Assembly: GCF_003334785.1 (NCBI RefSeq)
Contig: NZ_QOWV01000004.1
DNA from: Escherichia coli
GTDB lineage: Bacteria > Pseudomonadota > Gammaproteobacteria > Enterobacterales > Enterobacteriaceae
Length of the DNA: 64,000 nucleotides
Direction: 5' to 3' (one strand)
Of the stretch, positions 20,529 through 21,936 are shown one piece after another (position 1 is the stretch's first letter; each line of letters begins with the position of its first letter). The position numbers were made by a program, and so were the translations under genes. The notes under the pieces are model-generated. The model worked only from the letters and a program-made list of their open reading frames with translations, was not told the DNA's origin and did not search any database.

Positions 20529-20897
20529 ATGAAATACCGCATCGCTTTAGCTGTTTCTCTCTTTGCTCTTAGTGCCGGTAGTTATGCCACTACCCTGTGT
20601 CAGGAAAAGGAGCAAAATATCCTTAAGGAGATCAGCTATGCCGAAAAACACCAAAACCAGAATCGTATTGACGGTCTGAATAAAGCCCTGAGTGAAGTCC
20701 GGGCCAACTGTTCAGATAGCCAGCTGCGTGCCGATCATCAGAAGAAAATCGCAAAGCAGAAAGATGAGGTGGCGGAACGCCAGCAAGATTTAGCCGAGGC
20801 GAAGCAAAAAGGCGATGCCGATAAGATTGCCAAACGCGAACGGAAACTGGCAGAAGCGCAGGAAGAGCTGAAAAAGCTGGAAGCGCGCGACTACTAA
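20529..20897 (+). CDS. yqjC: Periplasmic DUF1090 protein YqjC, 122 aa, signal peptide, coiled-coil rich in K/E/A
   Basis: Start at ATG MKYRIALAV... preceded by GGAAGG; alternative ATG at 20514. Confidence 0.75.
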   Translation: MKYRIALAVSLFALSAGSYATTLCQEKEQNILKEISYAEKHQNQNRIDGLNKALSEVRANCSDSQLRADHQKKIAKQKDEVAERQQDLAEAKQKGDADKIAKRERKLAEAQEELKKLEARDY

Positions 20898-20934
20898 CTC
20901 ACAATAGTCACTACTTACTCACCTGGAGAAAACT

Positions 20935-21240
20935 ATGTCGAAAGAACACACTACGGAACATCTGCGTGCTGAGTTGAAATCCCTTTCCGATACGCTGGAA
21001 GAGGTGCTTAGCTCATCTGGCGAGAAGTCGAAAGAAGAGTTGAGTAAGATTCGTAGCAAAGCGGAGCAGGCACTGAAACAGAGCCGTTATCGCCTGGGTG
21101 AAACCGGTGATGCCATTGCCAAACAAACCCGTGTCGCGGCGGCGCGTGCCGATGAGTATGTGCGCGAAAATCCGTGGACGGGCGTGGGCATTGGCGCTGC
21201 AATCGGTGTAGTGCTCGGCGTTCTGCTGTCGCGTCGTTAA
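20935..21240 (+). CDS. yqjD: Ribosome-associated C-tail-anchored membrane protein YqjD (ElaB/YgaM family), 101 aa
   Basis: C-terminal transmembrane helix GVGIGAAIGVVLGVLL; CTGGAGAA Shine-Dalgarno. Confidence 0.85.
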   Translation: MSKEHTTEHLRAELKSLSDTLEEVLSSSGEKSKEELSKIRSKAEQALKQSRYRLGETGDAIAKQTRVAAARADEYVRENPWTGVGIGAAIGVVLGVLLSRR

Positions 21241-21242
21241 TT

Positions 21243-21647
21243 ATGGCGGACACTCATCACGCACAAGGGCCCGGTAAAAGCGTTCTGGGCATCGGGCAGC
21301 GAATTGTTTCTATCATGGTTGAAATGGTAGAGACACGTCTGCGGCTGGCGGTGGTGGAGCTGGAAGAGGAAAAAGCGAATCTCTTTCAACTTTTACTGAT
21401 GCTGGGCCTGACGATGCTTTTCGCTGCATTTGGTCTTATGAGCCTGATGGTGCTAATTATTTGGGCGGTTGACCCGCAATATCGCCTGAATGCGATGATT
21501 GCCACCACCGTGGTGTTGCTGCTACTGGCACTGATTGGCGGTATCTGGACGCTACGTAAATCGCGTAAGTCTACGTTGCTGCGCCATACACGCCATGAGT
21601 TAGCAAACGATCGGCAGCTGCTCGAGGAGGAGTCCCGTGAGCAGTAA
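21243..21647 (+). CDS. yqjE: Inner-membrane protein YqjE, 134 aa
   Basis: ATG 2 nt after the yqjD stop (taattATG); two predicted transmembrane helices. Confidence 0.75.
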   Translation: MADTHHAQGPGKSVLGIGQRIVSIMVEMVETRLRLAVVELEEEKANLFQLLLMLGLTMLFAAFGLMSLMVLIIWAVDPQYRLNAMIATTVVLLLLALIGGIWTLRKSRKSTLLRHTRHELANDRQLLEEESREQ

Positions 21648-21936
21648 AGTCGAACGTGAACGACGTAAGGCGCAACTGCTTAGCCAGATCCAGCAACAAC
21701 GGCTGGATCTTTCCGCCAGTCGTCGTGAATGGCTGGAGACAACAGGCGCTTACGATCGTCGCTGGAATATGCTGCTAAGTCTGCGCTCCTGGGCGCTGGT
21801 TGGCAGTAGCGTGATGGCGATCTGGACGATTCGCCATCCTAATATGCTGGTCCGCTGGGCCAGACGCGGTTTTGGCGTATGGAGCGCCTGGCGTCTGGTT
21901 AAAACGACCCTCAAGCAGCAACAGCTTCGCGGTTAA
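21637..21936 (+). CDS. yqjK: Small protein YqjK, 99 aa, GTG start overlapping the yqjE 3' end by 11 nt
   Basis: GAGGAGG Shine-Dalgarno 7 nt upstream of the GTG. Confidence 0.7.
   Translation: MSSKVERERRKAQLLSQIQQQRLDLSASRREWLETTGAYDRRWNMLLSLRSWALVGSSVMAIWTIRHPNMLVRWARRGFGVWSAWRLVKTTLKQQQLRG

Follow-up and report, generated by a model that had tools for sequence, protein, structure and literature searches.

The four small genes yqjC, yqjD, yqjE and yqjK lie side by side in a stretch of 64,000 nucleotides (nt) from an Escherichia coli genome (contig NZ_QOWV01000004.1, assembly GCF_003334785.1), referred to here as the window, and are the already described stationary-phase stress operon yqjCDEK; the cluster itself is no discovery, and it is the same locus, with no difference, as that studied by Pourciau et al. 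2023 (PMC10746276). The additions made by the present analysis are small: a conserved junction at which yqjE lacks a Shine-Dalgarno sequence, a yqjK Shine-Dalgarno that is also coding sequence of yqjE, the accessory nature of yqjC, variants in which the yqjD-like partner has a CsbD head, and a rhomboid gene that can occupy the third slot. The best explanation of these features joins the known operon to translational coupling within it and to an action of YqjE and YqjK on the membrane tail of YqjD. As a whole we give this explanation a probability of about 0.6; its identity and operon parts are virtually certain.

All four genes are on the plus strand: yqjC (20529-20897, ATG start) encodes a 122-residue DUF1090 protein with a signal peptide, yqjD (20935-21240, ATG) the 101-residue tail-anchored DUF883 protein that acts as a ribosome hibernation factor, yqjE (21243-21647, ATG) a 134-residue two-helix hairpin of the inner membrane, and yqjK (21637-21936, GTG) a small, very basic membrane protein of 99 residues. 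The frames were re-derived from the sequence; all are open and agree with the RefSeq annotation of MG1655, in which the products are a DUF1090 protein, a DUF883 protein, a ‘phage holin family protein’ and a YqjK-like protein, with mzrA upstream and yqjF downstream. Over bases 20300-22200 the identity to MG1655 (E. coli K-12) is 100%, and of 5426 complete E. coli genomes 5423 have this stretch, at a single site in the chromosome (median copy number 1). The genes are separated by 37 nt (yqjC/yqjD) and 2 nt (yqjD/yqjE) and overlap by 11 nt (yqjE/yqjK), so that the tight packing claimed in a preliminary description of this DNA is exact to the base. The same description had proposed a GTG start with a strong Shine-Dalgarno for yqjK, had taken YqjD for a C-tail-anchored, ribosome-binding protein of the ElaB family and had taken YqjE for a two-helix membrane protein; each of these is borne out by the evidence given below. 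As expected for a single operon, the genes share one strand, their junctions are +37/+2/-11 nt and the published sigma-S start sites map onto matching bases. Co-transcription is taken from PMC10746276; the hairpin and T-run downstream are terminator-like.

Residues 8-60 of YqjD match Pfam PF05957 (DUF883, E = 4e-13) and residues 72-101 match PF19029 (the DUF883_C glycine-zipper tail, E = 2.1e-15), and its sole hydrophobic segment is the C-terminal tail anchor at residues 81-99 of 101. Against NCBIfam NF007709 (‘stress response protein ElaB’) it scored 92.5 bits, short of the curated threshold of 139 bits; ElaB is a separate, paralogous protein. Searches of PDB sequences with YqjD and YqjE gave no relevant solved structure. 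YqjD is the type member of the YqjD/ElaB/YgaM family (Njenga et al. 2024, bioRxiv 10.1101/2024.08.16.608256; Yoshida et al. 2012), defined by the DUF883 N-domain and the DUF883_C tail; its paralogues ElaB and YgaM are each encoded by a solitary gene, yqjE and yqjK neighbours being kept only in the yqjD lineage. Njenga et al. found that YqjD is tail-anchored in the inner membrane, dimerises via its glycine-zipper helix and binds with its N-terminus around the 50S exit tunnel, silencing ribosomes. Like YqjD, ElaB ties 50S subunits to the membrane, and either protein inhibits translation in vitro, with contacts at the tunnel exit to uL22, uL23, uL24 and uL29, and in both the transmembrane helix is needed for dimerisation and activity. 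The same authors report that, across the family, yqjE-like and yqjK-like genes share syntenic blocks with DUF883 genes.

The junctions of yqjE with its two neighbours were surveyed by scanning genomes with an alignment of YqjE, which yielded 80 species, all Enterobacteriaceae. Every one keeps the order yqjC-yqjD-yqjE-yqjK, but nearly always the whole yqjA-mzrA...yqjF-yqjG neighbourhood is kept as well; therefore linkage specific to the operon cannot be separated from general synteny in this sample. The junctions themselves are more telling. The yqjE ATG follows the yqjD stop by 1 nt in 25 species and by 2 nt in the other 55, and a Shine-Dalgarno before yqjE is found in 0/80, the best duplex with the 3′ end of 16S ribosomal RNA never being stronger than -1.7 kcal/mol. 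In the window the corresponding duplex energies are -6.2 kcal/mol for yqjC, -6.4 for yqjD, +1.1 for yqjE and -11.8 for yqjK, the last being the best of the four genes. The yqjK Shine-Dalgarno, GAGGAGGAG at 21624-21632 (+), falls within the codons that specify the acidic LLEEES end of YqjE, and most of the 80 species have a GGAGGA-type site at the corresponding place. At the position equivalent to that in E. coli, 42 species start yqjK with GTG, 23 use ATG and 1 has TTG; in the remaining 14 loci the start is displaced by about one codon, one of them (L025) through an alignment artefact. In about 75/80 yqjK begins no later than the yqjE stop. The GTG start is supported because the residues that directly follow it are conserved across the YqjK family. 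The packing of the cluster exceeds chance.

With a gap of 2 nt and a best duplex of +1.1 kcal/mol at yqjE, yqjD and yqjE have the features of a coupled pair, and the junction suggests that their translation may be coupled. Ribosomes that finish yqjD would re-initiate on yqjE, so that production of YqjE would be confined to the places and times at which YqjD is produced; the strong Shine-Dalgarno within the 3′ end of yqjE would then drive yqjK from its weak GTG start, and the three proteins would in this way be produced together at the membrane.

Loci outside the Enterobacteriaceae were used to look at linkage of the genes apart from general synteny. Twelve representatives were taken from an exhaustive search, with proteins 27-40% identical to YqjE; one had no record, leaving 11 distinct loci, in which domains were assigned with Pfam and with hidden Markov models (HMMs) built from the enterobacterial orthologues. 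Their contigs range from 31 to 68% GC, and their flanks hold unrelated genes (homoserine dehydrogenase, fimbrial, ferredoxin, deacetylase, carboxyltransferase and type VI secretion genes). A gene with a DUF883_C tail adjoins yqjE in 11/11 and is immediately upstream in 8, with gaps of -4 to +14 nt. In 10/11 a small open reading frame overlaps the yqjE stop by 4-31 nt; a rhomboid gene is found there in the other. The YqjK HMM matches five of these third genes, Pfam weakly matches one, and four are supported by motif alone. The third-slot proteins with no Pfam match (L093, L094, L095 and L097) have a YqjK-like layout where they are complete; the N-terminal K-x(9-10)-QR motif of YqjK, which speaks for homology, is present in L095 and L097, with NR in place of QR in L093 and L094. 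Profile-profile comparison of the third-slot proteins of L093 and L088 with the YqjK alignment was co-linear but weak (E = 0.003-0.005, probability 7-10%). A DUF1090 gene, as encoded by yqjC, is present in 0/11 of the distant loci and in 80/80 of the Enterobacteriaceae. Since the distant loci keep a tail-anchored gene, yqjE and, in all but one, a small third gene, and never have DUF1090, the conserved core is yqjD-yqjE-yqjK, and yqjC lies outside it as a lineage-specific accessory gene. Conservation of the gene order, which the preliminary description had named as a check, holds for all four genes in the 80 Enterobacteriaceae species and fails for yqjC in the 11 distant loci.

This division fits the published finding that cold and oxidative stress shift the expression of yqjC one way and that of yqjDEK the other (PMC10746276). 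YqjC matches Pfam PF06476 (DUF1090, E = 1.8e-34), and its N-terminus is hydrophobic at residues 5-23 and followed by SYA/T, resembling a signal peptide; YqjC may be a periplasmic add-on specific to the Enterobacteriaceae. An in-frame ATG lies five codons before its annotated start (20514-20528) and would give a protein beginning MEGSRMKYR; it falls within the CsrA site AUGGAAGG described below, and both RefSeq and the logic of the signal peptide favour the start at 20529.

Two further observations from the distant loci bear on what YqjE and YqjK might act upon. Firstly, yqjE has a Shine-Dalgarno of its own in L084 (-6.2 kcal/mol) and L087 (-5.6 kcal/mol), two loci in which the tail-anchored gene does not directly precede it, and has none in the AT-rich or moderate-GC loci in which that gene abuts it. 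Secondly, in L084/85 and L087 the neighbour encodes a CsbD head, of the general-stress type, joined to a DUF883_C tail in place of the DUF883 head (L084 3727-3975, L085 1599-1847, L087 2549-2809). Therefore the constant feature of the partner is the tail anchor and not the ribosome-binding head, which points to the glycine-zipper tail as the feature to which YqjE and YqjK would be linked.

Several side observations were made in the same loci. A yqjK-like open reading frame of L084 (3389-3682) had been overlooked by the gene caller. The gene filling the yqjK slot in the high-GC metagenomic contig L091 (1605-2258; also in L092) encodes a 217-residue rhomboid protease and overlaps the yqjE stop by 4 nt. 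Downstream of the cluster and on the opposite strand, an AI-2E_transport (PF01594) gene is present in both L088 (2052-3152, -) and L095 (3199-4278, -); this may be due to common descent of the two loci or to a neighbour that recurs.

YqjE has hydrophobic helices at residues 47-76 and 85-104 with an 8-residue loop between them and charged ends, a layout implying that both termini would be cytoplasmic, and it carries a conserved acidic juxtamembrane motif, ELEEEK. YqjK matches Pfam PF13997 over the whole model (positions 1-73 of 73, E = 9.5e-25), has 19 K+R against 6 D+E, and contains a weak hydrophobic segment at residues 45-63. We propose that the YqjE hairpin, with its acidic motif, and the very basic YqjK may have the glycine-zipper tail of YqjD as their target within the membrane; they could tune its assembly, oligomerisation or clustering, and hence the strength of ribosome sequestration. 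This partner role is the tentative part of the explanation, and we would put its chances at somewhat below even. A wider form of it is more doubtful: YqjE-YqjK could be a dedicated module that recognises a DUF883_C tail under any head, DUF883 or CsbD, and controls its oligomerisation or clustering. In E. coli it would switch, from the membrane side, the tethering of ribosomes by YqjD, and it might act in trans on ElaB and YgaM.

A physical complex of YqjD, YqjE and YqjK is plausible, and the preliminary description had gone as far as a co-translated membrane complex. Its basis in co-orientation, co-conservation and a published operon holds; co-translation is inferred only from the junctions, and the complex is unproven. 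The one published basis found for association of YqjE and YqjK with themselves and with each other, and for the statement in print that they are predicted to form complexes, is the PREDDIMER transmembrane-dimer server (reference 68 of PMC10746276). Apparent fusions of D with E (PF05957+PF07332) or of E with K (PF07332+PF13997), as in P0034, P0060, P0157 and others, were considered as evidence of interaction and, after a residue-by-residue reading, rejected as frameshifted or low-quality versions of this locus. Fusion-like protein clusters of this kind are present in public collections, one with 74 members, and could mislead inference of interaction from fusions.

The most serious alternative is that the genes are independent neighbours: YqjD alone would carry out hibernation, and YqjE and YqjK would be general envelope-stress membrane proteins that share its promoter because this is economical for regulation, and form no complex with it. 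Much of what favours this alternative also weighs directly against our explanation. AlphaFold2 was run on linker-fused chains; both models are all-helical, and neither has a confident overall arrangement. This is a weak test, given the shallow alignments, the assumed ratio of chains and the length of the helices. The D-E-K fusion, from a shallow alignment of 33 paired sequences and with an assumed 1:1:1 ratio, gave a predicted template modelling score (pTM) of 0.28 and a mean predicted local distance difference test (pLDDT) of 61, with the YqjD tail below 55; the E-K fusion, from a similarly shallow 27 sequences, gave a pTM of 0.34 and a mean pLDDT of 70.5, the YqjE hairpin reaching about 90 and YqjK 70-80. 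The coupling of yqjD and yqjE is read from sequence. Furthermore, purified YqjD inhibits translation in vitro by itself, and ElaB and YgaM function with no adjacent E/K genes (bioRxiv 10.1101/2024.08.16.608256); YqjE and YqjK are therefore dispensable for the core activity. Additional start sites have been reported before yqjE and before yqjK, and YqjD far exceeds YqjC in abundance (PMC10746276), and expression is therefore not strictly stoichiometric.

The comparison with Pseudomonas aeruginosa, known here from the published work on PA3040-PA3042 (PMC11302039), has a bearing on both explanations. The layout of that cluster matches that of yqjDEK, a DUF883 gene being followed by a yqjE-like gene and then by a small third one, at junctions of less than 15 bp. 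Both stationary phase and envelope stress induce it. The cluster differs in that PA3042 has no recognised domain and in that overexpression does not inhibit growth. Its phenotypes concern biofilm, pyocyanin and tobramycin, the tobramycin and biofilm effects arising via the third gene (PMC11302039). They are envelope-like rather than ribosome-like, which again counts in favour of independent neighbours, as does the recurrence of DedA/DoxX membrane genes beside the cluster (VTT_dom genes in L089/90, DoxX in L091, yqjA and yqjF in E. coli). Set against this, the overlapping or near-abutting adjacency is kept in 11/11 distant loci over the full range of GC content and among unrelated flanks, and yqjE is without a Shine-Dalgarno exactly where a tail-anchored gene abuts it and has one elsewhere, a pattern typical of products that are needed jointly. 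On balance we regard independent neighbours as unlikely, though deserving of serious weight, and prefer the explanation in which YqjE and YqjK act on YqjD.

A far less probable alternative follows from the RefSeq name of YqjE, in which YqjE would permeabilise the membrane and be restrained by YqjK and/or YqjD, in the manner of holin/antiholin or toxin/antitoxin pairs, giving dormancy under stress. YqjE does match Pfam PF07332 (Phage_holin_3_6, E = 4.1e-21, model positions 5-115 of 116); it is small, with two helices and charged ends, and its overproduction causes growth arrest and raises persistence more than 100-fold (PMC4738310). The Pseudomonas homologues, however, are not toxic on overexpression (PMC11302039). 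In a search of the PHROG phage families (E <= 0.01) none of the four proteins had a relevant match, and YqjE had no match whatever; nor are there lysis, endolysin or prophage genes near yqjCDEK. Because of these two results, the ‘phage holin’ name is a label inherited from the Pfam family and is unsupported as a function. What YqjE shares with the Phage_holin_3_6 holins is the Pfam match and the pair of transmembrane helices; it differs from them in its lack of phage context, lysis partner and PHROG match, and in being a core chromosomal gene of the sigma-S regulon, present with its cluster at one site in all but three of 5426 E. coli genomes and across the Enterobacteriaceae. Overexpression of membrane proteins is in any case commonly toxic. 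About as improbable is that YqjE and YqjK are required as an insertion or receptor device for the post-translational entry of DUF883_C tails into the membrane: the tail is the constant feature of the partner under either head and the gene order places synthesis of YqjE and YqjK right after completion of the tail, but ElaB and YgaM bear the same tail and are not encoded beside E/K genes, tail-anchored proteins of E. coli reportedly insert via general pathways, and the YqjD tail is of low confidence in the fused model.

The regulation of the operon has been defined experimentally elsewhere, and the published start sites and the GGA motifs of the CsrA sites fall on the expected bases of the window. 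yqjCDEK is handled as an operon by Pourciau et al. 2023 (PMC10746276), with a sigma-S-dependent start 82 nt before yqjC, here the A at 20447 with a sigma-S-type -10, TCTATGATT, at 20434-20442 (+). A second sigma-S start lies inside yqjC, 101-105 nt before yqjD; this internal promoter for yqjDEK (20820-20834, +) has the -10-like sequence GATAAGATT, with starts in CCAAA at 20830-20834 (-105 to -101 of yqjD). During growth CsrA represses translation of yqjC and yqjD by binding BS1 in the yqjC leader and BS2-BS4 before yqjD, with footprints at -50 to -80 and one site in the yqjD Shine-Dalgarno (PMC10746276). BS1 is AUGGAAGG (20514-20521, +), with its GGA at 20516, and overlaps the yqjC Shine-Dalgarno; BS2/BS3/BS4 span 20861-20927 (+), with GGA at 20861, 20879 and 20925, BS4 being within the yqjD Shine-Dalgarno. 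Stationary phase and salt (osmotic induction) both turn the operon on, and a Reg-Seq study likewise reports induction of yqjC-yqjE by salt, with an activator footprint at a yqjE promoter (bioRxiv 10.1101/2025.05.13.653802).

Downstream of yqjK, folding gives a GC-rich hairpin of 7 bp at 21946-21964 (GGCCGGA...UCCGGCC), and 12 nt beyond it stands a T6 run at 21977-21982 (feature 21946-21982, +). A strict terminator scan made no call after yqjK, and the folding z-score of -0.79 for the whole 76-nt stretch holding the hairpin is not significant against shuffled sequence; the hairpin and T6 are probably the operon end. They are followed by a promoter-like TTGACA-18-CATCAT at 21991-22020 (+), ahead of yqjF.

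In E. coli the yqjD-yqjE-yqjK triad is flanked by DedA/VTT and DoxX membrane genes, yqjA (19333-19995) and yqjF (22122-22514), and such genes recur beside it in unrelated metagenomic contigs (L089 1778-2455, L090 258-935, L091 379-843), the DoxX gene of L091 being directly upstream of the DUF883 gene; this hints at a wider envelope-stress neighbourhood. Elsewhere in the window RefSeq annotates yqiM, a 27-codon small protein gene, just before yqjA (19228-19311, +). A full-length rnpB (RNase P RNA) was found at 41663-42039 (-; Rfam RF00010, 318.6 bits), and two tandem matches to naRNA4, derived from repetitive extragenic palindromic (REP) elements, at 2861-2942 and 2961-3042 (-; RF02564, 72.8 and 66.9 bits).

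The cluster has a textbook-level annotation and recent papers dedicated to it. Proteins of the YqjD type are among the most abundant in stationary phase, and their standing as a class of ribosome hibernation factor was established recently; a strain deleted for yqjD reportedly lags by about 1.5 h when it recovers from stationary phase. Both of the conserved neighbours, YqjE and YqjK, are still members of the E. coli “y-ome”, in whose listing yqjC, yqjE and yqjK remain (PMC11551758). If YqjE and YqjK do regulate the tail anchor, this would explain why the hibernation factor is bound to the membrane and how its activity is switched, and it might also account for the effects of the Pseudomonas homologues on biofilm and tobramycin tolerance.

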